Below are positions 15,815-32,597 of a DNA stretch of 64,000 nucleotides, piece after piece. Under the pieces are notes generated by a model. It was not told where the DNA came from, did no database searches, and saw nothing but the letters and a program-made list of their open reading frames with translations. Each line of letters starts with the position of its first letter. Position 1 is the first letter of the stretch. Source of the stretch: Candidatus Enterousia sp. (GTDB taxonomy: Bacteria > Pseudomonadota > Alphaproteobacteria > Rs-D84); contig JAZRJE010000007.1 of assembly GCA_045645645.1 (NCBI GenBank), positions 34,735 through 98,734 on the forward strand. Reading direction: 5' to 3'. The position numbers and the translations under genes were made by a program.

Positions 15815-16453
15815 TCATTGTTTTGCTGGACACCATTTTGCGACGGGACACCTTTCGCATTCTGGACGCAACGCTTTGCATACATATCGTCCATGTAAAA
15901 CCATTACATGGTTTACAATTGGATGATATTTTTTTGGGATTTTTTGTAGCAGTTTTTCTTCTACTTTTTCAGGTGTATTGTCTGTATCATCAACCCATCC
16001 ATATCGATGAGCGTTGCGAAAAACATGTGTATCAACGCCAATATTTGGCGCACCCCATAAAACATTACATATAACGTTCGCTGTTTTTTGACCAATTCCT
16101 GGTAATTTCATTAAAGTATCACGATTGCGATATTTATCAGGAAAATTATCTGTCATCTTTTCTGCGACCAAACGTTCGGCCAGCGCAATTATATTTTTTG
16201 CCTTGTTGTTAAAGAAAGAAATAACACGTATGTGTTCTTTTAATCCATCAATTCCCAAATCTAACATTTTTTGTGGTGTTGGTGCGATGCGGAATAATTC
16301 AGGCGTTACCTCATTTACTTTTTTGTCTGTCGCCTGAGCTGATAAAATAACCGCCACCGCAAAGTTAAATTCATTGGTATGATACAACTCTGACCGTATA
16401 GTCATATCGACTGTATCAGGGACTAATTCAAAATATCTTTGTGGCGTCAGCAT
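15815..16453 (-). CDS. nth: Endonuclease III
   Basis: AVILSAQATD, LPGIGQKTANV (HhH), VDTHVFR, C-x6-C-x2-C-x5-C [4Fe-4S] motif. Confidence 0.96.
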   Translation of the reverse strand: MLTPQRYFELVPDTVDMTIRSELYHTNEFNFAVAVILSAQATDKKVNEVTPELFRIAPTPQKMLDLGIDGLKEHIRVISFFNNKAKNIIALAERLVAEKMTDNFPDKYRNRDTLMKLPGIGQKTANVICNVLWGAPNIGVDTHVFRNAHRYGWVDDTDNTPEKVEEKLLQKIPKKYHPIVNHVMVLHGRYVCKALRPECERCPVAKWCPAKQ

Positions 16454-16665
16454 TATTTCTGCTTTTGTAACAGTTCCAGAATTTTTGCGTTTTGTTGTTT
16501 TACAATTCGCAAATTGTCCAGTATTGTATATTCTTCACGTGTTAAATTTAACTTACGTGAACATAACGATTCTCTTTTGCAAAGACCGTTTGCACGAAAA
16601 TCAGGACATTGGCAACCATAATCATTTTCTGGATAAAAAAATTCTTTACAATATTTTCCTGCCAT
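16453..16665 (-). CDS. Hypothetical 70-aa Cys-rich protein
   Basis: AGGA SD, TAATG overlap with the nth start, 5 Cys; fills an otherwise empty gap in a tight operon. Confidence 0.75.
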   Translation of the reverse strand: MAGKYCKEFFYPENDYGCQCPDFRANGLCKRESLCSRKLNLTREEYTILDNLRIVKQQNAKILELLQKQK

Positions 16666-16676
16666 TTTTTAATTCC

Positions 16677-17096
16677 TTATTTTTGATTTTCTTTATCACG
16701 ATGAACAAACTGTAACAGACGTGTAATCAATTCCATTTCTTCTGTCAAATAGATTTCATGGTCGCATCCACCCTCTCCTGGCATGTTTTCATGTTTTTTG
16801 CATTTACCACCTGGGGTCTGATGCGGACAATGTTTATCAATTTGACCACAATACAGATTATTCGGATATGTCTGCATCGGTTTAAGTGTTGTGGAAATAA
16901 TACGTGGACCAGAATTGTATATGTGATACAGATATTTAATCAAAAATCCACTTTCTGGATTTTCAACCACAACAGAATCAGGACAACGTTCTTGCTTATC
17001 CAACCTTTCTGTCAATTTGCATCGTCCATCTGGCAATTTTTCGGGACATTTTGTCCCGATGTTGCCACAGTATAAATATGGATATTTTAGATTCAT
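16677..17096 (-). CDS. Hypothetical 139-aa protein with two tandem four-Cys repeats
   Basis: AAGGA SD overlapping the ileS end; internal duplication with identical C-x6-C-x8-C-x11-C spacing. Confidence 0.8.
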   Translation of the reverse strand: MNLKYPYLYCGNIGTKCPEKLPDGRCKLTERLDKQERCPDSVVVENPESGFLIKYLYHIYNSGPRIISTTLKPMQTYPNNLYCGQIDKHCPHQTPGGKCKKHENMPGEGGCDHEIYLTEEMELITRLLQFVHRDKENQK

Positions 17097-17105
17097 ATTT
17101 TATCC

Positions 17106-20100
17106 TTATGCCTTATTTACAGATACATTCAAATTATATCCTTCGATATCAGTTGTGTATTCACCGTCACCAGATTTCATTTCGACAATCAATGCTTCGT
17201 GCATAATACGTTTTTTATGTACTTCGATTGCATTAACGATTGCTGGATCACCCGAATACGTCAGGGTTATTCTATCAGAAACATCCAAACCTGCTGTCTT
17301 GCGTGTATCCTGGATGAAACGCAATGCGTCATTTGCCAACCCTTCTGCGACCAGGTCTGCTGTCACTTCTGTATCCAGAACAACCACCGCTGTATTGTCT
17401 GGCAATGCCGCACCTGAAACCCCAGTCTTGACGGTTAAGCGGTTTTCAAATTCGTCTGCATTCATCTCGTGTCCACCAGCAACTAATTTGTCACCAACTA
17501 ATTCATATTCGCCACGTTTGACGGCTGGAATAATTTCTTTTAAAGCCCCACCCAGACGTGCGCCAATTTTTGGTGTAATCAAATAGATAAAGCTATCTGC
17601 AACTTCATCGATATTTTCAATGAATTTAATTTCTTTAACATTTAATTCATCACGAATGATGTCAGCGTATGCACTTAAATCTGGGCCTGCAACGGTCATA
17701 TTAGCCAACGGCAAACGATTACGTAATTTGTATTGTTCACGCAATTGTTTTCCAGTAGATACGACCATTTGTACACGTCGCATATCATCGACAATTTTTT
17801 TATCGAAGATTTCCGCAGTTGGAAAATCTGTTAGATGTACAGATTCTGCATCCGTTAAGTTGCGATAGATGTATTCGGAAACAAATGGTGCGAACGGTGC
17901 CAGAACACGACACAATGTTGTCATCACTGTGTACAGTGTATCAAAAGCATCTTGTTCTTCGTCCCAGAAACGTGCACGACCACGACGAATGTACCAGTTG
18001 TTCAAGATGTCCAAGAATCGAACAAATTCTTTGATTGCAACATCTGGCTTGTATTCATCCAGTGCTGATTTTACAACACCAATCAAGACGTTTAATTCTG
18101 CCAAGATATATTTATCCAGTGCATTTGTTGGATTTTGCATTTCTTTTGCAACGATATTTCCAGCATTTGCATACAGTGTAAAGAAATGATACGCATTCCA
18201 CAATGGTGTTAAGATAGTTTTTGTAGATTCAACGAACACTTTACCTTCTTTATCAACTGGCACTGGTTCAGCTTTCATAAAGTTTGACCCCAGCACGAAC
18301 AAACGAATAGCATCTGCGCCATATTGTTCTATTTGCTGTTCAGGGTTAACAAAGTTCTTTAATGATTTAGAAAATTTCTTTTTATTTTCATCAACAACCA
18401 TACCATTTGCAGAAACATTCTTAAACGCAGGTTTATCAAACAACGCTGTTGCCAGCACCATCAGTGCATAGAACCATCCACGTGTTTGGTCTTGTCCTTC
18501 GATAATATAATCAGCTGGGAAAGTTGCTTCAAAGCGTTCCTTGTTTTCAAATGGATAATGCAATGATGCCCATGGCATAGAACCAGATTCAACCCAACAA
18601 TCCAAAACATCTGGTATACGTTTCCATCCATCCTTTTCCAGTTTATCTAATGTTGGACGATGCAGGTCAGATACTTCTACACCAAAGAATTCTTCTAATT
18701 CAGCAATTGAGCCAAACACTTTGTATTCACCGTCTTTTTCCCAAATTGGTAATGGCATCCCCCAGAAACGATTACGTGAAATTGACCATGGACGTGCCCC
18801 TTCTATCCAGGTACGGAAACGTTCGCCAGCACTTGTCCAATTAACCAGATTATTATTTGCAATCAGTTTATCCTTGATTTTTGGTACGTCAATATACCAA
18901 GAATCTGTTGCACGATAAATTAACTTTTCTTTTGAACGATCGCCAAATGGATAGTTGTGTTTGTATTGTTCTTTCTTAACCAAACGACCATTTGATTTTA
19001 ACCAATCCAGTATCGCTGGTGTTGCTACAAATATATTTTGACCTGCAAAATCAACAACTGTTTCATCAAAGTTACCATATGTATCAACGTTTAATAACAC
19101 TGGGAATTTTGGATCAATATTTTTTGCTGCCCAAAAGTCATCTGCACCGTATGCAGGTGCGATATGAACAATACCTGTACCATCACCATCGGAAACATAG
19201 TCCGCTGGAATTATTTGGAACAGTAAATCAGATTGTCCCGCATAGTATGGAAACAACGGCGTGTAATGCATGCCAGCTAATTCAGCACCTGTTAAGCGCC
19301 CTATTTCCGTTGCATTTGCGAATTGTTTTTCATATGCCTTTAAGCGACTTTCTGCAACAACATAAACTGCGCCATCATTATCCTGCATACGCAGATATGT
19401 CATATTTGGATTAACAGCCAGCGCACTATTTGCAGGCAATGTCCATGGTGTTGTTGTCCATGCAATTGCACGATCACCATTTTCTAATTCAAACCAAACT
19501 GTGACTGCATCATCAACAATTTCACGATAATCACTGGATGCTTCGGAATTTGAAATTACCGTACCATTAACCCAGTCATATGGATTAACGCTGTAGTCTT
19601 TGTACAACAGACCTTTTTCATACAAAGACTTTAATGTCCACAACATTGATTCCATATAATCTTTATTCATGGTTTTATAACCATATCCATCGCCAATATC
19701 AACCCAGCGACCCATACGTGCAATAAATGCGTTCCATTCATTTGTATATGTCATAACATCGCTGCGACACATATCGCAAAATGCCGCAATACCATCATCT
19801 GCAACAATATCTTTGGCAGATTTACCAACCTTTTTTTCAACAGAATTTTCGGCTGGCAAGCCATGACAATCCCAACCTAACTCACGTCTGACATAGCGAC
19901 CCGACATTGTCTGGAATCGTGAAACCATATCTTTGACCACAGACACCCCTAAATGTCCCCAATGTGGCAAACCATTAGCAAATGGTGGGCCGTCATAGAA
20001 ACTAAATGGATGTCCCAACTTTGTTTTTTCTAATGTTTTATGAAACGTGTCGTTTGCACGCCAATAGGCTAATAATTCATGTTCTAATTCTGGGAAATTA

Positions 20101-20129
20101 GCACGTGGGTCTGTTTTTGGATATGACAT
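17106..20129 (-). CDS. ileS: Isoleucine--tRNA ligase, type 2 (eukaryote/archaea-like clade)
   Basis: DGPPFANGLPHWGH, GWDCHGLP, WTTTPWTLPAN, WSISRNRFWG, EGQDQTRGWFY, KFSKS; 1007 aa with a long C-terminus and no IleRS1 zinc finger. Confidence 0.95.
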   Translation of the reverse strand: MSYPKTDPRANFPELEHELLAYWRANDTFHKTLEKTKLGHPFSFYDGPPFANGLPHWGHLGVSVVKDMVSRFQTMSGRYVRRELGWDCHGLPAENSVEKKVGKSAKDIVADDGIAAFCDMCRSDVMTYTNEWNAFIARMGRWVDIGDGYGYKTMNKDYMESMLWTLKSLYEKGLLYKDYSVNPYDWVNGTVISNSEASSDYREIVDDAVTVWFELENGDRAIAWTTTPWTLPANSALAVNPNMTYLRMQDNDGAVYVVAESRLKAYEKQFANATEIGRLTGAELAGMHYTPLFPYYAGQSDLLFQIIPADYVSDGDGTGIVHIAPAYGADDFWAAKNIDPKFPVLLNVDTYGNFDETVVDFAGQNIFVATPAILDWLKSNGRLVKKEQYKHNYPFGDRSKEKLIYRATDSWYIDVPKIKDKLIANNNLVNWTSAGERFRTWIEGARPWSISRNRFWGMPLPIWEKDGEYKVFGSIAELEEFFGVEVSDLHRPTLDKLEKDGWKRIPDVLDCWVESGSMPWASLHYPFENKERFEATFPADYIIEGQDQTRGWFYALMVLATALFDKPAFKNVSANGMVVDENKKKFSKSLKNFVNPEQQIEQYGADAIRLFVLGSNFMKAEPVPVDKEGKVFVESTKTILTPLWNAYHFFTLYANAGNIVAKEMQNPTNALDKYILAELNVLIGVVKSALDEYKPDVAIKEFVRFLDILNNWYIRRGRARFWDEEQDAFDTLYTVMTTLCRVLAPFAPFVSEYIYRNLTDAESVHLTDFPTAEIFDKKIVDDMRRVQMVVSTGKQLREQYKLRNRLPLANMTVAGPDLSAYADIIRDELNVKEIKFIENIDEVADSFIYLITPKIGARLGGALKEIIPAVKRGEYELVGDKLVAGGHEMNADEFENRLTVKTGVSGAALPDNTAVVVLDTEVTADLVAEGLANDALRFIQDTRKTAGLDVSDRITLTYSGDPAIVNAIEVHKKRIMHEALIVEMKSGDGEYTTDIEGYNLNVSVNKA

Positions 20130-20155
20130 AATTTACTACTCCGTATTTTATTATT

Positions 20156-20203
20156 AAAAAAAGGCGCATATGCGCCCCAGCCACCGCCAAAGCGCAGTCA
20201 GCC
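20156..20203 (-). promoter_or_regulatory. Attenuator RNA: protector, antiterminator and intrinsic terminator upstream of ileS
   Basis: Minus strand GGCUGACUGCGCUUUGGCGGUGGCUGGGGCGCAUAUGCGCC-U7. Terminator stem GGCGC/GCGCC; upstream UGCGC can pair with GCGCA in the terminator 5' arm. Confidence 0.8.
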
Positions 20204-20204
20204 A

Positions 20205-20237
20205 TTATTTAATAATAATTATTGTTACCTGTTTCAT
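20205..20237 (-). CDS. ileS leader peptide MKQVTIIIIK
   Basis: ATG AAA CAG GTA ACA ATA ATT ATT ATT AAA TAA: four consecutive Ile codons directly before the attenuator. Confidence 0.8.
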   Translation of the reverse strand: MKQVTIIIIK

Positions 20238-20253
20238 TTTTTAACTTAATTTC

Positions 20254-20329
20254 TGGTGCCGGTGATAGGACTTGAACCTACGACCCCCTCATTACGAATG
20301 AGATGCTCTACCAGCTGAGCTACACCGGC
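20254..20329 (-). tRNA. trnT: tRNA-Thr(CGU)
   Basis: 76-nt cloverleaf GCCGGTG...TTCAAG...CACCGGC-ACCA, anticodon loop TT-CGT-AA. Confidence 0.96.
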
Positions 20330-20390
20330 ACAACGCCCATGACTATAGACTATATTTATCACAATTTCCAGTGGTTTTTAGTTTGGTTTA

Positions 20391-22034
20391 TTAATTTTTA
20401 ATCTTACGCAATACAACCATAATGCCTGCTGGTGTCATACCAGGAATACGCGATAAATCTGCAATGTTTTCTGGACGTGTGGCACTTAACTTTTCAATCA
20501 GTTCATTTGTTAATCCTGGTAATCCAGTATAGTCAAAATTACTGGGGATTTTCATGTTTGCGTCACGTTTATATGCAGCGATTTCGCGCTCATTGCGTGC
20601 AATATATCCAGCATAAAATTTATCGTTTTCTGCAAATATATCTTTTTTTAGATTGTATAACAGTTTGTATTTTTCTGCAGATAATAATCCTAAGTTAACA
20701 GCAGTTTTACCCAGTCGTTTTATTGCGTTGTCTGCGCGCAGATTTAATCTGTATTCTGCACGTGATGTGAACATACGATATGGTTCATCAACCCCCAGTG
20801 TGGTTATATCATCAATTAAAACCCCAATCATAGCATTGGTTCTGTCCAGAATTAAAAATTCCTGATTTAAAGCGAATGCGGCGGCATTTGCCCCTGCGAC
20901 TAATCCTTGGGCTGCGGCTTCTTCGTACCCAGATGTGCCGTTAATTTGTCCTGCAAAGAACAAGTGAGGTATATCTTTGCTTTGTAGCTTATCATTTAAT
21001 GCGCGTGCATCAATAGCGTTGTATTCAATTGCATATCCGTATCGTGCAATACGTGCATTTTCCAAGCCTGGAATGGTACGAATCCATTTGTCTTGGATTT
21101 CTGCCCCAAAACTGGTTGATATGCCATTTGGATAAATTATATCACTGTTATAACCTTCTGGTTCCAAGAAAACATGATGAGATGTATGTTCTGGAAATCG
21201 CATAACTTTATCTTCCAGACTTGGACAATATCTGGGGCCTGTACCGACAATATCACCATTATACATAGGTGCATTTTTTATATTTTCACGAATTATATTA
21301 TGTGTTATTTCATTTGTATGTGTAATGTAACATGGACAGTGAAAATTATTATCATTGTCACCTGTGTCAAACCAATCATGTGGTGTGTCTGGTTCTTGAA
21401 TTTCACATACAGACCAGTCAATAGAATCACGGTAAATACGCGCAGGTGTTCCTGTTTTTAAACGCAGAATTTTAAAGCCGTTTTTAAGCAATACATCTGA
21501 AATGTTTTTATCTGCAGCTTGGTATGTTCCGTCATCTTGTAAGCGGCCAGATGAGATTTTTTCATCACCACGTGTCACGACGCCATCTAAAAAAGTCCCA
21601 GTTGTTAACACGATAGATTTAGTTAAATATTCATTGTTAACAAGTTTTTTTTCAATATCTAATTTTGTAACAGGTTCATATTTTATTTCCAGATTTTCAT
21701 ATTCTGATAAAATATCAAGTATTGCATTATGATATAAATCGCGATCAATTTGCGCACGCAGTGCTTGTGTTGCGGCACCATGTGTTGCGTTTAAAGTTCG
21801 CCAATGGATACCTGCTTTATCTGCGGCGCGCCCCATAACGCCCCCCAGTGCAGTCATTTCTGCCACCATTTGTGATTTACCAGGTCCCCCAATACTTGGG
21901 TTGCAAGACAATGCCCCCAGATCACTTTCAGTTTGGGTTATCAGTAATGTTTTTGCCCCACGTCTAGCAGATGCTGCTGCGGCCTCAACCCCAGCATGTC
22001 CGCCACCAATAATGATTACATCATAATTTTTCAT
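20391..22034 (-). CDS. mnmG: tRNA uridine-5-carboxymethylaminomethyl modification enzyme (GidA), shortened
   Basis: GGGHAGVEAA, SCNPSIGG, RLKTGTPARI, GPRYCPSLEDK, AGQINGTSGYEEAAAQG, YRMFTSRAEYRL. Confidence 0.96.
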   Translation of the reverse strand: MKNYDVIIIGGGHAGVEAAAASARRGAKTLLITQTESDLGALSCNPSIGGPGKSQMVAEMTALGGVMGRAADKAGIHWRTLNATHGAATQALRAQIDRDLYHNAILDILSEYENLEIKYEPVTKLDIEKKLVNNEYLTKSIVLTTGTFLDGVVTRGDEKISSGRLQDDGTYQAADKNISDVLLKNGFKILRLKTGTPARIYRDSIDWSVCEIQEPDTPHDWFDTGDNDNNFHCPCYITHTNEITHNIIRENIKNAPMYNGDIVGTGPRYCPSLEDKVMRFPEHTSHHVFLEPEGYNSDIIYPNGISTSFGAEIQDKWIRTIPGLENARIARYGYAIEYNAIDARALNDKLQSKDIPHLFFAGQINGTSGYEEAAAQGLVAGANAAAFALNQEFLILDRTNAMIGVLIDDITTLGVDEPYRMFTSRAEYRLNLRADNAIKRLGKTAVNLGLLSAEKYKLLYNLKKDIFAENDKFYAGYIARNEREIAAYKRDANMKIPSNFDYTGLPGLTNELIEKLSATRPENIADLSRIPGMTPAGIMVVLRKIKN

Positions 22035-22037
22035 TGC

Positions 22038-22766
22038 TTAGAAACGTCCCATACCACCGTTTACATGTAATGTTTGTCCGTTTATATACGCCGCTTCATC
22101 TGATGCTAAGAACACACATGCGTTTGCAATATCTTCTGGTTCACCAAATCTGCCTGCTGGTATTTGTGCCAGATATGTTTTCTTTAATTCTTCTGGCAAA
22201 ACATCTGTCATTGGTGTTTTGATAAATCCTGGTGCGATTGCATTAGCGGTGATACCACGTGAAGCAACTTCAGCTGCAATAGATTTTGTCATGGCAATCA
22301 TACCACCTTTACTTGCAGCATAGTTTGCCTGACCTGGTCCCCCGATTGTACCGATAATTGATGCCATATTGATAATACGACCAAAACGATTTTTCATCAT
22401 TGGCATAATTGCAGCACGACACATTTTAAAGCATGAACGCAGATTGGTATTTATTACTTCGTCAAATTGTTCGTCGCTCATGCGCATCAGTAATGTATCA
22501 CGTGTAATACCTGCGTTATTTATCAAGATATCAATCTTTCCGCATTTTTCTATTGTATTCATGACCAGTTCAACAGCCCCGCCATCTGCCGCCAGATCGC
22601 ATGGAATTTTGATATACTCATCGCCAAATTCTGTATCCATTTTTTTTGTGTTTCGACCAGATACAACAACTGTTGCCCCAGCATCTTTCATTTTACGTGC
22701 AATTGCCCCACCGATTCCTCCTGTTGCGCCAGTTATCAATGCAACTTTACCTGATAGATCAAACAT
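22038..22766 (-). CDS. fabG: 3-oxoacyl-ACP reductase
   Basis: TGATGGIG, NNAGITRD, NYAASK, NAIAPGFI, HVNGG. Confidence 0.95.
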   Translation of the reverse strand: MFDLSGKVALITGATGGIGGAIARKMKDAGATVVVSGRNTKKMDTEFGDEYIKIPCDLAADGGAVELVMNTIEKCGKIDILINNAGITRDTLLMRMSDEQFDEVINTNLRSCFKMCRAAIMPMMKNRFGRIINMASIIGTIGGPGQANYAASKGGMIAMTKSIAAEVASRGITANAIAPGFIKTPMTDVLPEELKKTYLAQIPAGRFGEPEDIANACVFLASDEAAYINGQTLHVNGGMGRF

Positions 22767-22768
22767 AA

Positions 22769-23644
22769 TTAAATCTCCAATTTTTTAGGTGTTATTTTAT
22801 CTGTAATACGTGAACACAGTCCCGTCAATACGTTTCCTGGTCCAACTTCAATCTGTTCTGTAATGCCAAGCTCTACCATATTTAAAACACTTTCACGCCA
22901 GCGAACATCATGTGTCATTTGGTAAACAAGTGCTTCTTTTATTTCATCAATATTTTGTGTTGGATTACATGTTTTATTCAAAATAATTGGCACGACGGGT
23001 TTTTTAAATTCAACAGTGTCTAGTGCATCACGGATTTTATCTGCTGCTGGTGATTGAACACGACAGTGCACAGGAACAGACAGTGCCAGTGGCATTGCAC
23101 GTTTTGCGCCCTGCTCTTTTGCAAGTACCATGGTTTTTTCAACCACGTCGCGCAGTCCTGAAATCACAACTTGTCCAGGACTATTATCATTTGCGACATC
23201 ACAGCCTGTTTCAGAACAAATTTTACGTAGTGTGTCAATTTCCAGTCCTAAAATAACAGCGGTAAGTCCTGTCCCAACTGGTACAGCGTTTTGCATTGCA
23301 TTTCCACGTATGCGTAATAATTTTGCTGTGTCGCCAATTGTCAGTGCGCCTGCAGCACACAGGGCTGTGTATTCACCCAAAGAATGTCCTGCAACAAATT
23401 CAGGTAAATTTACATTGCTTGCGCGCAACATTGCAATTGATGTAGCCATAATAGCAGGTTGAACATTTGCAGTCAGTGTCAAAGTATCTGCTGGTCCATC
23501 AAATATAATATCTGACAGTTTTTCACCCAGTGCTTCATCAACTGCGTCAAATATCGCACGTGCGTCCGCATTTGTTTCATACAGTTCTTTTCCCATACCA
23601 ACGGATTGTGCACCCTGTCCTGGGAATACAAAAATAGATGACAT
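22769..23644 (-). CDS. fabD: Malonyl CoA-ACP transacylase
   Basis: FPGQGAQ, GHSLGEY, NDNSPGQVVISG, VRWRES. Confidence 0.96.
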   Translation of the reverse strand: MSSIFVFPGQGAQSVGMGKELYETNADARAIFDAVDEALGEKLSDIIFDGPADTLTLTANVQPAIMATSIAMLRASNVNLPEFVAGHSLGEYTALCAAGALTIGDTAKLLRIRGNAMQNAVPVGTGLTAVILGLEIDTLRKICSETGCDVANDNSPGQVVISGLRDVVEKTMVLAKEQGAKRAMPLALSVPVHCRVQSPAADKIRDALDTVEFKKPVVPIILNKTCNPTQNIDEIKEALVYQMTHDVRWRESVLNMVELGITEQIEVGPGNVLTGLCSRITDKITPKKLEI

Positions 23645-23673
23645 TTATTGTCCTTTATTAAATCACAAGGATA

Positions 23674-24219
23674 TTATACTTTGCGAATACTGAATTCGCA
23701 ACCGCAATAATTCTGACGATAAAAATCAGATTCACGATTGATTTGCAGCCGCAGATTTTCGTCCCATTTTATTGGCATGTATTCGATGTTTTTACATACT
23801 TTTTGTGCGGATGTGTTAACCTGGTTTTGGTCTTTGTGTCTGGATACGCCTAATACGCTTGCAATTGCGTTGTATCCGTTTTCTTTTGCGAATTTTACTG
23901 CGCGACGAAATCGATATTCAAAGCATAGCGAACATCGTGTCCCACGTTCTGGTTCTTTTTCTAATCCGCGTACTGCATCGCGCCATGCGTCATGATCATA
24001 TTCTAAAACAGCGTATTTAACCCCAATATTTTCACAGTATTTAATTTGTTCGTGCATACGCTTTGTATATTCTGTTTCTGGGAAAATATTTGGATTATAG
24101 AATAAAACAATAAAATCATCAATGTTATCAATTGCACCATCTGCTAATTGTTTAATCGCACCCGCAGAACATGGGGCACAACAAGACAATAACACAAGAC
24201 GTATTTTATCATGAATCAT
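23674..24219 (-). CDS. queH: Epoxyqueuosine reductase QueH (DUF208)
   Basis: SCCAPCS, FYNPNIFP, PERGTRCSLCF, YRQNYCGCEFS. Confidence 0.9.
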   Translation of the reverse strand: MIHDKIRLVLLSCCAPCSAGAIKQLADGAIDNIDDFIVLFYNPNIFPETEYTKRMHEQIKYCENIGVKYAVLEYDHDAWRDAVRGLEKEPERGTRCSLCFEYRFRRAVKFAKENGYNAIASVLGVSRHKDQNQVNTSAQKVCKNIEYMPIKWDENLRLQINRESDFYRQNYCGCEFSIRKV

Positions 24220-24244
24220 TTATTTTGTTTTTTTCTTGCCTTTG

Positions 24245-26236
24245 TTACTTAACAAATTCTGTGCCAACTGCTGTATCGTTACTTAATTCAATAATATTTT
24301 TATCGTCGTTCCCAATCCCCAGTTCTGCTGTGCCACACATCATTCCAAAAGATTCGATTCCTGCAACAGTACGCTGATTAATTGGTTTTTTTGCAGTTGG
24401 TAATACGCAACCAACTGGTGCGATAACACTTATCATATTTTTACGAACATTTGGTGCTGCGCACACAATCTGTGCTGGTTTTTCTGCGCCATATTCAACA
24501 GACAGAATATGTAAATCGTCACGTGTCGGATGTTTTTGAACTGACATAATTTTTGCAACTGTCGGTTTTGGTGACGTGTTTTCTTTTTTTGGTGTATACT
24601 TTTCTGTCAATCGTGTAACTGTTTCATCATCGATGCGATTAAATAGATTTTCAGGTACAATAAATTCTGCACCATCATCAATACGATGTTCATATTTTTC
24701 TGGCCAAGACAAATCATGTGTATTCACAAAAACATTTTGCATTTTTTCAGCAGCTGCTGGAATAAACGGCATCGACACACGTGCGTATAAGTCTATTAAT
24801 TGGAAACATTCGTTCAATACAGCACCAGCGGTGTCAATTTCACCATTTTTAACCAATGCCCATGGTTCATGTGCGGTCATATATTCGTTACCAATAGCGT
24901 ACAGTCCGCGCAATGCCGCAATTGCGTTGCGGAATTCGCATGCGTCTAATGCAGCAGTTAATTCTGACAGCTTTTCATTGATTTTTGATTTTAATTCAGA
25001 ATTCACTGTGCCAGATTTTGGAACATTATTTCCAAAGTTCTTTGCAGTCAGTTTGCATACGCGTGATACAAAATTTCCCAGCATACCATTCAAATCTTTA
25101 TTTACAATATCTGCAAATCGTGTAATTGTAAAATCAGTGTCATCTGTTTCAGGGGCGCTGGCCATTAATGCATACCGCCAATAGTCCGCAGGCAGTTCTT
25201 GTACTGCATCGTTCAAGAAAACGCCATTACCAGTAGATTTTGAAATTTTTGCACCATTCATATTCAAAAAGTTCATACCCTTTAACACGTCAACAGTTTT
25301 CCAATTGTCATCCATTGCCAGTTCTTGGGATGGAAAAAATATAGAATGGAATGAAATATTATCTTTGCCCATAAATTGTGTATAGTGCACATCATCGCCA
25401 CCATGCCACCAATCAGCCCAGTTTTTATTTGCCGCCTGTGATATAGAAACGTATCCCCATGGTGCATCAAACCATACATAAAAAACTTTGTTTTCGTATC
25501 CAGGTTTATTAACAGGAATTCCCCATTTTAAATCACGCGTAATTGGGCTGTCGTGTAAGCCTTCTTCTAACCATTTATTCGCAATGGCCAGTGCTGTTTT
25601 TGGCCACCCTTTACGAGAATCAATCCATTGGCGTAGTTTGTTCTGCATTTCGCTTGATTTAAAATACATATGTTTTGTTTCACGCATTTCCACTGGTGAG
25701 TCTGGTGTAATTGCGCTGTGTGGATTGATTAGTTGTTCTGGTTCTAATGTTGTATCGCAATTTCCACATTCATTTCCATAAGCTTTTTCATAACCGCATT
25801 TTGGACATGTTCCGACAACAAATCTGTCTGCCAAGAACATTTTATCTTTGATTGAATATGGCTGAACAGATGTTTTTTCGACCAGCATATTCTGCTCTTG
25901 CAGACGGTCAAATAGCCGTTGGATTAATTGCTCATGCAGTTTTGTATGTGTTCGTCCATATGTATCAAAAGATAAATTAAAATCACGTACAGACTGTTCA
26001 TGTGCGGCACGATATTTATCAACGTATTCTTCAACAGGAATCCCCTCTTTCATAGCGCCGATTTCACTGGCTGTTCCATGTTCGTCGGAACCACAAACAA
26101 ACAAAACATCACGTCCCATTGCGCGACAAAAACGTGCATAAACATCACTTGGTAACCAGCAACCGACTAAATGACCAATATGCAAATTATTGTTAACATA
26201 TGGCAAAGCCGACGTAATTAAGTATTTTTTAGCCAT
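24245..26236 (-). CDS. metG: Methionine--tRNA ligase with C-terminal tRNA-binding OB domain
   Basis: SALPYVNNNLHIGH, GSDEHG, zinc knuckles CPKC/CGNC, YVWFDA, KISKS, QIVCAAPN. Confidence 0.96.
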   Translation of the reverse strand: MAKKYLITSALPYVNNNLHIGHLVGCWLPSDVYARFCRAMGRDVLFVCGSDEHGTASEIGAMKEGIPVEEYVDKYRAAHEQSVRDFNLSFDTYGRTHTKLHEQLIQRLFDRLQEQNMLVEKTSVQPYSIKDKMFLADRFVVGTCPKCGYEKAYGNECGNCDTTLEPEQLINPHSAITPDSPVEMRETKHMYFKSSEMQNKLRQWIDSRKGWPKTALAIANKWLEEGLHDSPITRDLKWGIPVNKPGYENKVFYVWFDAPWGYVSISQAANKNWADWWHGGDDVHYTQFMGKDNISFHSIFFPSQELAMDDNWKTVDVLKGMNFLNMNGAKISKSTGNGVFLNDAVQELPADYWRYALMASAPETDDTDFTITRFADIVNKDLNGMLGNFVSRVCKLTAKNFGNNVPKSGTVNSELKSKINEKLSELTAALDACEFRNAIAALRGLYAIGNEYMTAHEPWALVKNGEIDTAGAVLNECFQLIDLYARVSMPFIPAAAEKMQNVFVNTHDLSWPEKYEHRIDDGAEFIVPENLFNRIDDETVTRLTEKYTPKKENTSPKPTVAKIMSVQKHPTRDDLHILSVEYGAEKPAQIVCAAPNVRKNMISVIAPVGCVLPTAKKPINQRTVAGIESFGMMCGTAELGIGNDDKNIIELSNDTAVGTEFVK

Positions 26237-26263
26237 TTTCAACCTCACAAATAAATCGTGCAA

Positions 26264-26291
26264 ATTATAAACTATATTTTATACAAATCAA
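26264..26291 (-). promoter_or_regulatory. sigma70-type promoter for metG-queH-fabD-fabG-mnmG
   Basis: TTGATT-16bp-TATAAT on the minus strand. Confidence 0.6.
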
Positions 26292-26307
26292 TATTTATAA
26301 AGAAAAC

Positions 26308-26331
26308 AAAAAATACCGGCAGGTGCCGGTA
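26308..26331 (-). terminator. Terminator after tRNA-Val
   Basis: TACCGGC-acct-GCCGGTA-T6 on the minus strand. Confidence 0.75.
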
Positions 26332-26339
26332 AAGATTTC

Positions 26340-26416
26340 TGGTGGGTGGTATTGGACTCGAACCAACGACCTTTACGATGTCAACGTAACGCTCTAACCA
26401 ACTGAGCTAACCACCC
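26340..26416 (-). tRNA. trnV: tRNA-Val(GAC)
   Basis: 77-nt cloverleaf, anticodon arm TTACG-TTGACAT-CGTAA, encoded CCA. Confidence 0.96.
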
Positions 26417-26479
26417 ATAAAGCCAACGCATTATAACAGACAATTTTTCAAATGCAAATGATAAATACAATGAGGTTTC

Positions 26480-26508
26480 AAAAAAAATCCCCAAATCGGG
26501 GATTTTTT
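26480..26508 (-). terminator. Terminator after accC
   Basis: A8-TCCCC-aaatc-GGGGA-T6. Confidence 0.75.
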
Positions 26509-27853
26509 ATTCACTTTTCAAAAATTCTTCCAGCCAATGGTTGTCAAAATTTAATTGTTTTACATCTTTGTTTTTTAATAACTTTTGCTGTAACGGAATT
26601 GTTGTTTTTACACCTTCTATTACGAATTCATCCAATGCACGTGCTGCACGCATAATACATGCAGGACGGTTTGGTGCATGGACAATCAATTTTGCAATCA
26701 TTGAATCGTATGTTGCTGGGATTGTGTATCCAGTATAAATTGCGCTGTCTACGCGAACACCCATTCCACCAGCTGGCGCATACATAGTAATTTTTCCAGG
26801 GTTTGGAATAAATGTTTCTGGGTCTTCTGCATTAATACGAAACTCAATAGCATGTCCATTTGGAATTACGTTTGATTGATTGTAGCCTAACTTTTCACCA
26901 GCGGCGATACGGATTTGTTCACGAACCAAGTCAACCCCATAAACCATTTCTGTAACAGGGTGTTCAACCTGTAAACGTGTGTTCATTTCCAAGAAATAGA
27001 ATTTTCCGTCTTCAAACATAAATTCAAATGTTCCAGCATTTGTATATCCCATTTTCTTAGCGGCAGATTTACATATTTCTATCATGTCATCGCGCTGCTT
27101 CTGTGTCAGAATTGCTGCGGGACATTCTTCCATAACTTTTTGATTACGTCTTTGTAGCGAACAATCACGTTCACCAAAAATGACGACATTACCATGGGTG
27201 TCACCCAATACCTGAAATTCAATGTGTCGTGGGTGCATTAACAATTTTTCCATATATAATGTATCGTCACCAAATCCCGATAAGGCTTCTTGTTTTGTAA
27301 TTTGAAAAGCGTCATGCATTTCGTCTGCTGACATTACAGCGCGCATACCACGCCCACCACCGCCAGCGGCTGCTTTTAACATAACTGGGTATCCGATTTT
27401 TTTAGCCCACTCTAAGGCGCTTTCCAGTGTGTCTACAGCCCCATCAGAACCTGGAACAACAGGCAATCCGCATCCAATAGCGGTACGTTTGGCATTAACC
27501 TTGTCTCCCATTTTTTCAATTATGTCTGGGGACGGTCCAATCCATATCATTTTATGCTGTTCGACCTTGCGCGCAAAGTCTGCACGTTCAGATAAAAAAC
27601 CGTATCCTGGGTGGATTGCATCGGCATTTGTCAGTAATGCTGCTGTCAAAATTGCAGATTCGTTTAGGTATGAATCACGTGCGATTGCAGGACCAATGCA
27701 TACAGATTCATCAGCTAATTGAACGTGCATAGCATCATGATCAGCGGTTGAATAAACTGCTACTGTACGAATTCCCATGTCACGACACGCACGAATTATA
27801 CGCAGTGCGATTTCACCACGATTTGCGATTAAAACTTTTTTTATTTGTGGCAT
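26507..27853 (-). CDS. accC: Biotin carboxylase
   Basis: ANRGEIA, HPGYGFLSE, KAAAGGGGRG, RDCSLQRRNQK, EMNTRLQVEHPVTE, YDSMIAKLI. Confidence 0.97.
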   Translation of the reverse strand: MPQIKKVLIANRGEIALRIIRACRDMGIRTVAVYSTADHDAMHVQLADESVCIGPAIARDSYLNESAILTAALLTNADAIHPGYGFLSERADFARKVEQHKMIWIGPSPDIIEKMGDKVNAKRTAIGCGLPVVPGSDGAVDTLESALEWAKKIGYPVMLKAAAGGGGRGMRAVMSADEMHDAFQITKQEALSGFGDDTLYMEKLLMHPRHIEFQVLGDTHGNVVIFGERDCSLQRRNQKVMEECPAAILTQKQRDDMIEICKSAAKKMGYTNAGTFEFMFEDGKFYFLEMNTRLQVEHPVTEMVYGVDLVREQIRIAAGEKLGYNQSNVIPNGHAIEFRINAEDPETFIPNPGKITMYAPAGGMGVRVDSAIYTGYTIPATYDSMIAKLIVHAPNRPACIMRAARALDEFVIEGVKTTIPLQQKLLKNKDVKQLNFDNHWLEEFLKSE

Positions 27854-27856
27854 ATC

Positions 27857-28294
27857 TTATTCAATAATAACAAGTGGTTGATCAAATTCAACAGCCTGAC
27901 TGTCAGACACCAAAATTTCTTTTATGATACCGTCTTTGTCAGATTTAATTGGGTTAAATGTCTTCATTGCTTCTACCAGTGCGACAGTATCACCTTCTTT
28001 AACAGATGTTCCGACTGTAACAAACTGTTTTGCGCCAGGTTCTGGTGCCAGATACACAACGCCAACCATTGGTGATTTTAACGTATGCCCAGAAATAATT
28101 TTTTCAGATTTTGCACAAGTCTGGTTTTTGTTTGAATCTGTTGCAGGAACAGCGACAGTCGCTGTTTGTTGTTTTGATAAATGAATATGTTTACGATATA
28201 CGCCAAACAAAAACTGACGTTCTAAGTTTAATTCAGTAATCCCCATATCGTCCATGATCTTTGACATAGATTCAACGGTTGCACGAAATGACAT
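27857..28294 (-). CDS. accB: Biotin carboxyl carrier protein
   Basis: KSPMVG, VEAMKTFN biotinyl-Lys motif, VEFDQPL. Confidence 0.95.
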   Translation of the reverse strand: MSFRATVESMSKIMDDMGITELNLERQFLFGVYRKHIHLSKQQTATVAVPATDSNKNQTCAKSEKIISGHTLKSPMVGVVYLAPEPGAKQFVTVGTSVKEGDTVALVEAMKTFNPIKSDKDGIIKEILVSDSQAVEFDQPLVIIE

Positions 28295-28336
28295 TTTTTT
28301 TAATCCTTTTTAAAATTTTCATATCATATCTTTAAT

Positions 28337-28364
28337 ATTTTATCACAATGTAATTAGTTGTCAA
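28337..28364 (-). promoter_or_regulatory. sigma70-type promoter for accBC
   Basis: TTGACA-16bp-TAAAAT on the minus strand. Confidence 0.6.
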
Positions 28365-28369
28365 GTATA

Positions 28370-28609
28370 TCAGGGCACAGGATCGAAACCGAAACCACCC
28401 CCAGGTCTGCATCTGGATATGCGTTTAATTCCCAGCCAAGTTCCACGAAAAACACCATATTTTTCAATAGATTGTCGTGTGTATTCACTGCAGGTTGGTG
28501 TAAAACGGCATGCCGCACGTCCACCAATAAATGGCGAAATTGCGGATTGGTATATACGTACGGCACCAATTGCGATGCGTTTAGATAAGCTAGTGGTTTT
28601 CGTTTGCAT
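28370..28609 (-). CDS. yidD: Membrane protein insertion efficiency factor YidD
   Basis: YQSAISP, CRFTPTCSEY, GTWLGIKRISRCRP, GFDPVP; start trimmed to MQTK. Confidence 0.9.
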   Translation of the reverse strand: MQTKTTSLSKRIAIGAVRIYQSAISPFIGGRAACRFTPTCSEYTRQSIEKYGVFRGTWLGIKRISRCRPGGGFGFDPVP

Positions 28610-28943
28610 TTTTATGCATTTTTTTAATCCAGTGCAATGCTTTGCACATGGCGTCCAGTCCTTGATCATATGTTGCGTCCAAGATTTTATGACGTGCAAC
28701 AAAAACGTAATCAAGATCTGCCAGCATCATGTCGTCATATTTTCGAATCCATTCACGCAGCAGCCTTTTTGCACGATTGCGATCAACAGCATGTTTAAAA
28801 GTCTTTTTTGTGACAATCAAACCGTATCTTGCATCATCTTGATATTTAGCTGGTTTTGCCCGAACGATAAAATAAGCAGACATACCCGATAAATCATCGG
28901 GAGTCATTGCAAAATCGTCATGTTTTTTTATTGTTTCACGCAT
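28590..28943 (-). CDS. rnpA: Ribonuclease P protein component
   Basis: GLIVTKKTFKHAVDRNRAKRLLRE (RNR motif), DYVFVAR; upstream of yidD. Confidence 0.9.
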   Translation of the reverse strand: MRETIKKHDDFAMTPDDLSGMSAYFIVRAKPAKYQDDARYGLIVTKKTFKHAVDRNRAKRLLREWIRKYDDMMLADLDYVFVARHKILDATYDQGLDAMCKALHWIKKMHKNANENH

Positions 28944-28997
28944 GTTCCTTATAATAGCATATAAAACAAATAGTCAAACTTTTTTTATTGCCTTACC

Positions 28998-29026
28998 TTG
29001 ATTTTTGCAAATCCCCGTTTTATAGT
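28998..29026 (+). promoter_or_regulatory. sigma70-type promoter for mreB
   Basis: TTGATT-17bp-TATAGT. Confidence 0.55.
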
Positions 29027-29059
29027 GTTACGAACGTATTTATGAATTAATATTCTTAG

Positions 29060-30118
<1,059 letters not shown>

Positions 30119-30125
30119 AAATGTT

Positions 30126-30159
30126 AAAAAAAACACCGGTATTTACCGGTGTTTTTTTT
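30126..30159. terminator. Bidirectional terminator (mreB / typA)
   Basis: A8-CACCGGT-attt-ACCGGTG-T8. Confidence 0.87.
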
Positions 30160-31990
30160 ATTCTTCAATATGTTTCTTTAACTTTTTACGTGTATTGCTG
30201 TCTAATTCTTTTTTGCGCAGACGAATTGTATCTGGTGTTACTTCGACCAATTCGTCATCCAAGATATAAGACAATGCTTCTTCCAGTGAAATGCGACGTG
30301 GTGGGGCCAAGAATAATTTTTCATCAGCTGTCACCGAACGCATATTGGTTAATTCTTTACCCTTGATTGGATTTACTTCCAAATCATTTTCTTTGCTGTG
30401 TTCACCGATAATCATACCTGAATAAACCTCAGTTTGTGGATCGATAAACAGTGTGCCACGTGGTTGCAGGTTAAATAATGCATATGTTGCTGCACTGCCC
30501 TTTTCCATAGATACCAGCACGCCAGGGCGATACTGTTGGATTGCCCCACGATATGTGTCATATTTATCAAATACGCGGTTCATGATACCAGTGCCACGTG
30601 TATCTGTTCTGAATTCTGATAAGTAACCAATCAGGCCACGTGATGGTGCAGAAAATACGATGCGTGTTTTTCCACCACCCGATGCTTTCATTTCTGTAAT
30701 TGTTGCTTTGCGTTTGGTCATTTTTTCAATAACGACACCGCTAAATTCATCATCAACGTCGATTACAACGTCTTCGATTGGTTCTAATTTTTCACCGTTT
30801 TCACCTTCTATCATAACGACGCGCGGACGTGAAACAGATAATTCAAAGCCTTCACGACGCATTGTTTCAATTAAGATACCCAGTTGTAATTCACCACGAC
30901 CAGACACTTCGAACGCTTCATTATTTTCGCTTTGTTCTACTTTCAGTGCAATGTTTGTTTCGGCTTCTTTAAACAGGCGTTCACCAATCATGCGTGAAGT
31001 CAGTTTTTTACCAGATTTACCAGCCAATGGCGATGTATTTACAAAGAAAGTCATGGTCAAGGTTGGTGGATCAATTGGCATTGCTGGTATTGGTTCTGTG
31101 ACGCTTGGATCACACAATGTATCTGCCACTGTTGCTTTTGAAAAACCAGCGACAACAACAATGTCCCCTGCGGATGCAGTGTCACGTGAAACTTTTTCAA
31201 TCCCACGATGTTCAATGATTTTTGTAATTTTAGCGTTTTCAATAAATTCGCCCTTCATATTAATAGCTTTTACAGACTGACCAACTTTTACTGTGCCAGA
31301 TTCAATCTTACCAGTCAGAATTCGTCCAACATATGGATCTGCTTCCAGTGTTGTGGCCAACATTTTAAAAGGTGCATCCAGCTGGCAACGTTCACCGTTG
31401 CAATCTGGTGCAGGTACATGATCAACAATCAATTGGAACAGTGGCGTCAGGTCTTTACGTTCGTCATTTAAGTCACGAACCGCCCAACCATCACGTCCAA
31501 CAGAATACAGGTATGGAAAATCCAGCTGTGAATCTGTTGCGCCCAATTTGTCGAATAAATCAAATGTTTCTGTTAAAACTTCGTCTGGACGTGCGTCACT
31601 GCGGTCAACTTTGTTGATGCAAACGATTGGTCGCAATCCTAATTTTAATGCTTTGGATAATACAAATTTAGTTTGTGGTAATGGTCCTTCGGCGCTATCA
31701 ACCAGCAAAACCACCCCATCAACCATAGATAAAATACGTTCAACTTCGCCACCAAAATCTGCGTGTCCAGGTGTGTCAACGATGTTAATTTTATAATCGC
31801 CCCACTGAATAGATGTTGGTTTTGCAGAAATTGTAATGCCGCGTTCACGTTCAATATCACCGCTATCCATGACGCGGTCATCAACACGTTCGTTTTCGCG
31901 GAAAGTCCCAGCCTGTTTTAGCATGTTATCAACCAATGTTGTTTTACCATGGTCGACGTGCGCAATAATTGCAATGTTGCGAATTTTCAT
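30158..31990 (-). CDS. typA: Translational GTPase TypA/BipA
   Basis: RNIAIIAHVDHGKTT, DTPGHADFGGEVER, SGRGELQL, PRGTLF, EVTPDTIRLRK. Confidence 0.97.
   Translation of the reverse strand: MKIRNIAIIAHVDHGKTTLVDNMLKQAGTFRENERVDDRVMDSGDIERERGITISAKPTSIQWGDYKINIVDTPGHADFGGEVERILSMVDGVVLLVDSAEGPLPQTKFVLSKALKLGLRPIVCINKVDRSDARPDEVLTETFDLFDKLGATDSQLDFPYLYSVGRDGWAVRDLNDERKDLTPLFQLIVDHVPAPDCNGERCQLDAPFKMLATTLEADPYVGRILTGKIESGTVKVGQSVKAINMKGEFIENAKITKIIEHRGIEKVSRDTASAGDIVVVAGFSKATVADTLCDPSVTEPIPAMPIDPPTLTMTFFVNTSPLAGKSGKKLTSRMIGERLFKEAETNIALKVEQSENNEAFEVSGRGELQLGILIETMRREGFELSVSRPRVVMIEGENGEKLEPIEDVVIDVDDEFSGVVIEKMTKRKATITEMKASGGGKTRIVFSAPSRGLIGYLSEFRTDTRGTGIMNRVFDKYDTYRGAIQQYRPGVLVSMEKGSAATYALFNLQPRGTLFIDPQTEVYSGMIIGEHSKENDLEVNPIKGKELTNMRSVTADEKLFLAPPRRISLEEALSYILDDELVEVTPDTIRLRKKELDSNTRKKLKKHIEE
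31178..31193. promoter_or_regulatory. parS-like site inside typA
   Basis: aGTGTCACGTGAAACt matches 13/14 of the parS core GTTTCACGTGAAAC. Confidence 0.5.
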
Positions 31991-32072
31991 ATGTATTATC
32001 CTATATTTTTAAGTTTATCTGCATCAGAGTACACCCAAAAACGCAAGATTTCAACTTTTTTATATAAAAATA

Positions 32073-32102
32073 TTGACATTTGTTTTATTTTGTCTATATT
32101 AT
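32073..32102 (+). promoter_or_regulatory. Near-consensus sigma70 promoter for the ORFan at 32138
   Basis: TTGACA followed by TATATT (16 bp) or TATTAT (18 bp). Confidence 0.55.
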
Positions 32103-32137
32103 CTTCATAAAGAATAAGGTAAATATTGGAGGTAGAA

Positions 32138-32569
32138 ATGATAGATTACAATGCTACATTACAGGATTTTTTTAGTGAAATAATCAATTTTTTAAATAAA
32201 CAACTAGAAAGTGCCAAAGACGAAATTTGTTTTTCCAGAATAGAAGAAGCTATTAACATAGTGCGCAAGATTTCTAGTAATCCTGTTAAATATGCGGATT
32301 ATAATACACGTGTCAAAGAAAATTTGGTTGCAGATGTAAATGCGTTTATGTTATCAGAACGTGATAATTCTGTTTATTTATTGTATCGAGATGTTTTGTG
32401 CTCAATAGAAAATTTAAACAGTCAATATGATTGGAAACGCGGACAAGCACAAGAAAAACTTTTGCAATCATTACGTAAAATCAAATATAAAAATTCTAAT
32501 AATTTATTAAAAAAGATAGAATATTTATTTAAATCATCAGATAAATTTGCAGTACAGAAACAGAAATAA
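32138..32569 (+). CDS. Hypothetical 143-aa helical protein
   Basis: GGAGG SD 5 nt before the ATG, own promoter and terminator; no recognisable motif; ends AVQKQK. Confidence 0.8.
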   Translation: MIDYNATLQDFFSEIINFLNKQLESAKDEICFSRIEEAINIVRKISSNPVKYADYNTRVKENLVADVNAFMLSERDNSVYLLYRDVLCSIENLNSQYDWKRGQAQEKLLQSLRKIKYKNSNNLLKKIEYLFKSSDKFAVQKQK

Positions 32570-32571
32570 GA

Positions 32572-32593
32572 AAAGCCAGCATTTGCTGGCTTT
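32572..32593. terminator. Terminator hairpin between convergent genes
   Basis: AAAGCCAGC-attt-GCTGGCTTT. Confidence 0.7.
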
Positions 32594-32597
32594 AAGT

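Follow-up and report, generated by a model that had tools for sequence, protein, structure and literature searches.

Why do three small proteins, encoded in a single stretch of the genome of a Candidatus Enterousia species, all end with a glutamine followed by a lysine? The stretch, hereafter the window, comprises the 64,000 nucleotides from position 34,735 to position 98,734 of contig JAZRJE010000007.1 (assembly GCA_045645645.1), our contig C7. The original prediction, which had noticed these QK tails, proposed that they mark substrates of VirD4, the coupling protein of type IV secretion, encoded in the same window. The three open reading frames (ORFs) and their tails are as it described them, with positive coding scores for all three, and of the 58 genes called across the window they are the only ones with a QK end. 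At the rate of the genome as a whole, where 26 of 897 genes share this ending, three cases in 58 genes have a probability of 0.24, and on their own they are unremarkable. The observation itself is confirmed, and it extends well past these three cases: QK tails belong to a clade-specific carboxy-terminal tag, approximately [K/N/R]-Q-[K/R]-COOH and often Q-K-Q-K, which is present on some 7–8% of lineage-specific proteins. The proteins that carry this tag are accessory, mostly devoid of a Pfam domain and mostly not associated with membranes, and there are almost none among conserved proteins. To explain a pattern that is specific for a class of proteins, for a position and for a clade, a cause is needed that operates on the accessory proteins of that clade.

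A tag at the carboxy-terminus of accessory proteins

Members of Enterousia (order Rs-D84) are gut bacteria with genomes smaller than 1 Mb (PMC12306168). The source genome of the window (G000) amounts to 924 kb in 22 contigs, at 38% G+C. Its genes were called with a script of our own, based on codon-usage log-odds followed by greedy removal of overlaps, which resulted in 897 genes and a coding density of 92%; the carboxy-terminal residues are unaffected by the choice of start codons. These genes were split into two classes by a tblastn search (E<1e-5) against the complete genome, 716,531 bp in length, of a member of another genus within the family (G030). The 567 genes with a homologue in that genome are termed conserved, while the 330 others, non-conserved, represent the lineage-specific or accessory class.

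The last residue is a lysine in 28.3% of the 897 genes, which is 4.2 times its share of the overall composition. Since this proportion is the same in the two classes (28.2% of the non-conserved and 28.4% of the conserved genes, p=1), it must be seen as a general bias. The glutamine that precedes it is distributed otherwise. As the original prediction had anticipated for proteins of unknown function, a terminal Q[KR] is enriched across the whole genome in the lineage-specific class, with 28/330 genes against 5/567 conserved ones (p=1e-8, odds ratio 10.4), a result that was replicated in three other genomes of the order (G057, G030 and G112, see below); when only genes shorter than 200 codons are retained, the counts become 15/157 and 0/172 (p=1e-5). 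Counting the last residue as −1, glutamine occupies position −2 in 12.1% of the non-conserved and 2.5% of the conserved genes (p=1.4e-8), and position −4 in 9.7% and 2.3% of them (p=1.9e-6), while it stays at background frequency at −1, at −3 and from −5 to −8. Position −3 is taken by lysine, asparagine or arginine in 83% of a set of 59 tail proteins pooled from three genomes. From this profile, the motif can be defined as three final residues, [KNR]-Q-[KR], frequently with another glutamine before them, which come after a hydrophobic or helical stretch. Acidic residues are depleted from −1 to −3 and are specifically avoided at −2 of the accessory class, where, and only there, glutamine takes the place of glutamate and lysine. 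The last six residues have a net charge of +1.7 in tail proteins as compared to +0.6 in other accessory proteins, and the charge of the tail is positive whether it is computed over the last 6 or up to the last 20 residues.

Seen from the whole proteome, QK ranks second among terminal dipeptides, while KQK (12 genes) and QKQK (5 genes) rank first among terminal tripeptides and tetrapeptides, respectively. The bias in last codons is general in this genome, with AAA, GAA, AAG and AGA at the top of the list. Threonine ends a single one of the 897 genes, 0.02 times what composition would give, and proline is found at 0.19 times its share, whereas the more distant alphaproteobacterium G213 ends 13 of 340 genes in threonine. 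Selection on the last codon appears to be unusually strong in this lineage.

Several simple explanations were considered and rejected. Spurious ORFs do not have such ends: a collection of 9,129 shadow ORFs ends with lysine in 4.8% and with Q[KR] in 0.55% of the cases, against 28% terminal lysine in non-conserved genes, and the enrichment persists among genes with a reciprocal-best orthologue in the congener G057 (9/133 against 5/567, p=2e-4). Paralogy is not at work, as an all-against-all BLASTP comparison of the 33 Q[KR] proteins of the source genome yielded one weak pair (g0696/g0790) besides two adjacent genes of the window. Neither is a mobile island: in the densest cluster, which holds seven tail genes, these are small ORFans with gatA, gatC, sufBC, a secretin gene, a gyrB/parE-type gene, dnaJ, pgsA and uvrC as neighbours. 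Finally, loss of a stop codon (TAA or TAG changed to CAA or CAG) predicts glutamine mostly at −1 and then diverse residues, and glutamine is not enriched at −1; in frame, the next stop falls most often at +1; when it falls at +2, the residue at +1 is lysine in only 17% of the cases.

Distribution among related genomes

The tripeptide [KNR]Q[KR] was counted in six genomes. In the source genome it ends 22/330 accessory against 1/567 conserved proteins (p=3e-9), and the whole genome of the congener G057 gives almost the same figures (21/311 against 1/583, p=2e-9). The contrast extends to G030, which belongs to another genus of the family (6/146 against 0/552, p=8e-5), and, as a weak replication, to 400 kb of G112, from another family of the order (4/160 against 0/222, p=0.03). 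All four encode VirD4. Two class-level outgroups, each represented by 400 kb and each without a match to VirD4, do not display it: the counts are 2/218 against 0/122 in G213 (p=0.54) and 1/246 against 0/132 in G215 (p=1), bearing in mind that the non-conserved class of the outgroups, defined against Enterousia, is not strictly equivalent to that of the source genome. The original prediction had made itself vulnerable to the tail being equally common in relatives that lack VirD4; it is rare in these two small alphaproteobacterial outgroups. The genome of G215, at 26% G+C, has lysine as the last residue in 26% of its genes and yet lacks the glutamine pattern, so that a general lysine bias of AT-rich genomes had to be discarded as the origin of the tag: the final lysine can be ascribed to a general AT-rich or termination-context bias, the glutamine-containing tag cannot.

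A search of the literature on proteome-wide carboxy-terminal residue bias brought nothing useful, and no description of such a tripeptide tag was found in the searchable literature.

The tagged proteins and their evolution

Tail proteins are 55 to 445 residues long, and 48 of the 59 in the pooled set have no hydrophobic segment. A Pfam scan of 23 of them found a solid domain in three, namely a GNAT acetyltransferase, a dCTP-deaminase-like protein (DCD) and a DUF2817 protein; with 20/23 left without one, the label of ORFan used in the original prediction is a fair one. No Pfam domain is common to the tail proteins, and a shared carboxy-terminal domain of about 120 residues with recognizable motifs, of the XVIPCD type, was not found among them. 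The dCTP-deaminase-like protein is absent from genus g10 and is 73% identical to its counterpart in the congener, and KQK ends both copies; a role in defence by nucleotide depletion, instead of housekeeping, is conceivable for this enzyme.

Most tagged genes are species-specific: 19/28 in the source genome and 14/25 in G057 lack a reciprocal-best orthologue in the other of these two species. Where orthologues can be aligned at the nucleotide level, the tag is seen to have been gained by a point change (AAA to CAA), by a small insertion (YSFIK* as compared to YSFAQNQKQK*) or by a terminal frameshift. Its retention between diverged accessory orthologues of the two congeners resembles that of other classes of tails, which ranges from 14 to 55% (KK being lowest, with 1/7, and hydrophobic ends highest, with 21/38), and the 14 pairs available give no support to purifying selection on the exact tripeptide. 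Taken together, alignments and retention mean that the tag was gained repeatedly and independently, and that it is also readily lost. Such a turnover fits a degenerate functional signal as well as a strong generative bias.

Between gatC and gatA, three extra genes, tightly packed on the same strand, code for a protein of 160 residues with an RNA polymerase alpha carboxy-terminal domain and for two ORFans that end in NKQK and EQQR.

The three proteins of the window

The original prediction had taken the bodies of the three proteins as unrelated. This is wrong for the adjacent pair: the 70- and 139-residue proteins share a cysteine motif and an LTxEE helix (BLASTP E=0.002), which makes them adjacent paralogues, and the window contains two independent families, not three. 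None of the three proteins reaches the threshold of any Pfam family. That they are without a signal peptide, as had been stated, is borne out by the lack of a hydrophobic amino-terminal segment, the maximum hydropathy over 17 residues being 0.02, 0.70 and 0.52. The helix said to precede each tail is present in the models of the 139- and 147-residue proteins, at low confidence in both.

The 70-residue ORF ends in a stop codon that shares nucleotides with the start codon of the endonuclease III gene downstream (TAATG). The sole orthologue found for this protein, in G078, has an identical QKQK end, written with synonymous codon differences. When 58 other species of the genus were searched, the 139-residue protein had four clear orthologues, three of which end in D/E-K-Q-K while the most diverged ends in QKEK; a single-sequence AlphaFold2 (AF2) model of this protein was poor and uninformative. 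The 147-residue family is more widespread, being present in 28 of these 58 species. AF2 predicts a confident helical bundle, with a predicted local distance difference test (pLDDT) of 80–95 over residues 1–120 and a predicted template-modelling score of 0.76, followed by 21 last residues (123–143) where the pLDDT falls below 50; a search of the PDB gave no significant fold match. Among 20 sequences of the family (19 orthologues and the window protein), all 20 end in lysine or arginine and 13 in Q[KR], after a conserved FAVK motif and a variable spacer of 3–7 residues. Glutamine is encoded by CAA or CAG in these tails, and arginine by AGA, CGA, CGT or CGG. The A-rich tail of the window gene lies directly 5′ of a terminator-like hairpin, and a hairpin is found directly 3′ of every orthologue. 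Two of the three window families have intact orthologues in other species.

The lineage-specific class has only five members among the 58 window genes, and three of these five have the QK tail. The two others form a tandem pair of paralogues with quite different ends, and have no homologue in genus g10. Features of the window and of the rest of the genome are collected in Table 1.

Table 1. Location of the features discussed in the text (positions without a contig are those of the window)
Feature	Location	Strand	Remarks
VirD4-type coupling protein, 732 aa	7169-9367	-	PF02534 at 128 and 47 bits
70-aa ORF	16453-16665	-	cysteine-containing ORFan; end ILELLQKQK
139-aa ORF	16677-17096	-	two C-x6-C-x8-C-x11-C repeats and a C-terminal helix; end HRDKENQK
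143/147-aa ORF	32138-32569, or from TTG start at 32126	+	helical-bundle ORFan; end DKFAVQKQK
Terminator-like hairpin	32570-32597	.	gccagca-ttt-gctggc; occupies all 28 nt that separate the 147-aa gene from the convergent permease gene (32598-33815)
Tandem paralogues, 121 and 130 aa	60275-61035		ends KKNYS and NKPYN
VirB4	about 9 kb upstream of the window
VirB9 and VirB10	contig C18
VirB11-like ATPase	C17:20445-21404
Tagged ORFan, 85 aa	C17:20168-20425		end SEQVQR
TcpQ-domain protein and adjacent secretin	C5:8344-10989
GspE/PilB-type (T2SSE) ATPase, 551 aa	C7:7605-8816
dCTP-deaminase-like protein	C17:11003-11827		Pfam DCD, 95 bits
Genes inserted between gatC and gatA	C5:1639-2848
Densest cluster of tail genes	C5:2.1-16.3 kb		seven tail genes
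Convergent pair sharing one hairpin	C5:11077-11478 and C5:11499-11990

A scattered secretion machine

VirD4 was described as an orphan in the original prediction. At the level of the genome this does not hold, for VirB4, VirB9, VirB10 and a VirB11-like gene are found elsewhere; a search of the source genome with the TrbL/VirB6 Pfam model gave no match. The coupling protein is present in 101/101 genomes sampled in the family and in 151/151 genomes that were sampled in the order at a completeness of at least 90%. As a consequence of this universal presence, co-occurrence of tag and VirD4 cannot discriminate within the clade. The region of VirD4 that spans residues 241–420 or so is mildly acidic, with a net charge of −9.

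Directly downstream of the VirB11-like gene, on the same strand, lies an 85-residue, highly charged ORFan, the only tagged gene found adjoining a gene of type IV secretion. The TcpQ-domain protein and its neighbouring secretin, together with the GspE/PilB-type ATPase, indicate a second envelope-spanning machine, either a type IV pilus or a type II-like system.

What could read, or generate, the tag

Signals of type IVA secretion are hydrophilic, positively charged, disordered carboxy-termini, the last few residues of which are essential (PMC8740702, PMC11098119). The X-Tfe effectors of Xanthomonas, which have a glutamine-rich tail and a basic extreme carboxy-terminus, are not translocated without their last six residues (PMC8740702; also PMC11098119), and they are read by the all-alpha domain of VirD4 (PMC8740702). 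A similar scheme can be drawn for Enterousia. The tag would be a short polar and basic cap, placed after the last helix of accessory proteins, and would constitute the extreme carboxy-terminal part of a translocation signal. The universally conserved VirD4 would recognize it in the cytoplasm through its acidic all-alpha domain and would then hand the tagged protein to the VirB-type machine of type IV secretion, the genes of which are scattered; each genome would contain some 25–30 candidate substrates. A type IV translocation tag read by VirD4 is the most likely and most concrete single reading of the data, and we propose it tentatively, as a possibility to be kept in the foreground. We infer that the tag may be read at the level of the protein and, by pure inference in this second step, that VirD4 may be its reader. 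The effector interpretation of the original prediction is supported in part: the tag is enriched on accessory ORFans, and neither of the two refutation tests that were run overturned the idea, while its orphan VirD4 and the unrelated bodies of the adjacent pair had to be given up. In its most ambitious form, where [K/N/R]-Q-[K/R]-COOH is the minimal recognition element of VirD4 across the Rs-D84/Enterousia order, where the 25–30 tagged ORFans of each genome make up its effector repertoire and where effectors are gained simply by evolving three terminal residues, the proposal must be considered doubtful.

Several observations weigh against translocation by VirD4. In length, a tripeptide remains well below all type IV signals validated so far, and over residues −22 to −2 the tail proteins do not significantly exceed other accessory proteins in net charge (p=0.11). 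Hydrophobic segments occur in eleven of the 59 tail proteins, and several of these appear to be inserted N-in/C-out, which would probably place the tail in the periplasm; other carriers of the tag are ordinary enzymes (dCTP-deaminase-like, GNAT acetyltransferase), to which the DUF2817 protein may be added. Among the 14 diverged accessory ortholog pairs of the source genome and G057 where at least one member is tagged, both members are in only five. The distribution of VirD4 does not help, because the coupling protein is universal in the order and the sole contrast, with distant outgroups, amounts to one phylogenetic event; moreover, the tag becomes rarer outside the genus, from about 7% there to 2.5–4% in the rest of the order, a 2–3-fold variation that VirD4, equally conserved, does not follow. 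Finally, the codons of the tails are biased towards A-rich ones, so that a component of the pattern is present at the level of nucleotides.

Should the tag be read as part of the protein, its reader need not be VirD4. It might be a stability cap that hides the end of the protein from proteases that recognize tails, a tag for degradation or for chaperones, or the signal of another export route, and we see this family of explanations as somewhat unlikely. The specificity for class and position, together with the features that are visible at the level of amino acids, would suit any reader of proteins, and the presence of the tag on both soluble enzymes and membrane proteins would be easier to reconcile with a general mark for stability or quality control than with a single secretion route. 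Other routes are at hand, as the genome also encodes the secretin/TcpQ pair, the GspE/PilB-type ATPase and ABC exporters, and carboxy-termini are in general under unusually strong selection there, as witnessed by the figures given above for lysine (28%), threonine (1/897) and proline (0.19x). No candidate reader was identified to fill this role, and a general optimum for stability or for termination should be visible in conserved proteins too, which did acquire the terminal lysine and yet have glutamine at −2 at 0.8 times its share of the composition; the same optimum meets the difficulty of G215, which has the bias towards a terminal lysine without the glutamine pattern.

A quite different explanation, which we hold to be unlikely, is that the tails are a non-functional by-product of the nucleotide constraints that act on the 3′ ends of genes in a very compact genome. 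Stop codons would belong to the A-tract of a bidirectional terminator or to the A-rich leader of the next gene, and drift towards A-rich codons (AAA, CAA, AAT, AGA) would be open only to those carboxy-termini that evolve fast and without constraint. The intrinsic terminators of the source genome are almost all bidirectional, with the stop often embedded in the A-tract (AAA-TAA-AAA-hairpin-TTTTT), and convergent genes share one symmetric hairpin, as in the pair of Table 1, where both end CAAAAATAA. Many QK genes read caaaaaTAAaaa-hairpin-ttttt, a hairpin is found 3′ of 46% of QK genes against 24% (p=0.018), and terminal Q[KR] is about three times more frequent in accessory genes with a terminator (13/74) than in those without (15/256). 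The difference between accessory and conserved classes holds, though, on both sides of this divide, with 13/74 against 1/146 when a terminator is present and 15/256 against 4/421 when it is not, and the 70- and 139-residue genes of the window sit within an operon. Likewise, a run of five A is found directly upstream of 83% of 231 hairpins, but the 21 nucleotides upstream of these hairpins show no C peak; this and the enrichment in genes without a terminator led us to reject the A-tract as a DNA motif. An optimum for A-runs predicts lysine or glutamate at −2, where the accessory class has less of both (10 against 15.7% for lysine, 2.1 against 8.3% for glutamate) and more glutamine. The choice of codons is in keeping with a by-product, as 15/20 terminal arginines that follow a glutamine are encoded by AGA or CGA, a share that is 22% genome-wide, and CAA encodes glutamine in 76% of the tails against 62% genome-wide; CAG, CGT and CGC codons are nevertheless used in tails as well. 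Fast turnover, with recurrent gains via small indels or frameshifts, would also be expected, as would the 147-residue family, where every orthologue abuts a terminator and where tails are made of K, N, T, Q, R and S. On the other hand, the AT-rich outgroup G215 has the same lysine bias without the pattern, and the conversion of a TAA stop into CAA predicts a glutamine at −1 that is not observed.

That chance or artefact would account for the whole, through three tails happening to fall in one window and through bias in our gene calls or class split, is highly improbable: three QK ends in 58 genes are indeed banal at the genome rate, and both gene calls and classes come from our own simple scripts, but hypothesis and test had been set by the original prediction ahead of the data, the enrichment reaches p=1e-8, 1e-7 and 8e-5 in three genomes, carboxy-termini do not depend on start codons, shadow ORFs end in Q[KR] in 0.55% of the cases and in lysine in 4.8%, as compared to 28% terminal lysine in both real classes, and the result survives both length strata and restriction to genes with an orthologue in the congener.

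The consequences differ with the answer. If the tag is a secretion signal, it would be the simplest type IV signal known, crisp and countable where known signals are notoriously fuzzy, hence an unusually crisp new variant among them, and candidate effectors could be listed at once, from sequence only, throughout an order of Alphaproteobacteria that are uncultured, host-associated and of unknown lifestyle. If it is not, a separation of about 30-fold between accessory and core proteins by a motif of three residues, in several genomes, would be a new regularity of proteomes, with quality control, gene-birth dynamics and RNA constraints at the 3′ end of genes in compact genomes as candidate explanations.

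Comparison with known systems

A general phenomenon to be compared is the bias that bacterial genes display in the context of their termination codon and in carboxy-terminal lysine, reportedly described by Bjornsson, Mottagui-Tabar and Isaksson, and by Rocha et al. for B. subtilis. The Enterousia genome conforms to it, with a genome-wide preference for an AAA-TAA end (28% lysine), avoidance of threonine and proline as last residues and A-rich last codons, and this bias accounts for the final lysine of the tag. It affects all genes equally, however, and leaves unexplained both the glutamine at −2 and −4, restricted to accessory proteins, and its absence from G215. As an analogy only, the peroxisomal signal PTS1, of the SKL type, is likewise a degenerate tripeptide at the free carboxy-terminus of otherwise unrelated proteins; it is eukaryotic, with another consensus and another reader, and no homology is implied.

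Among substrates of type IVA secretion, those that carry the XVIPCD in Xanthomonas and Stenotrophomonas (X-Tfe, PMC8740702), served by a VirD4-dependent system, resemble the tagged proteins in their glutamine-rich tail and their positive extreme carboxy-terminus. They differ in that the XVIPCD is itself a folded domain, conserved over about 120 residues, whereas the Enterousia tail proteins have no domain in common; their glutamines are dispensable, and their final residues are a mixture of hydrophobic and basic ones, as in SRSMSM. The Bep proteins of Bartonella (PMC11098119, PMC6509941), where the signal comprises a BID domain and a positive tail, resemble the tagged proteins by this positive, unstructured tail after a helical domain, in organisms that encode VirB/VirD4, yet they require the BID domain, of about 100 residues, and the tail proteins share no such domain. 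The VirB/VirD4 substrates of Agrobacterium, VirF, VirE2 and VirE3 (Vergunst et al. 2005, summarized in PMC8740702, PMC11098119), differ in a signal that is rich in arginine over some 20 residues or more, with no requirement for glutamine, where the Enterousia feature is a crisp tripeptide and a putative signal by its sequence. They are alike in that the signal is located at the extreme carboxy-terminus, hydrophilic, of net positive charge, probably disordered and devoid of acidic residues, in that its last few residues matter, in that it is borne by otherwise unrelated proteins, and in that VirD4 is encoded by the genome.

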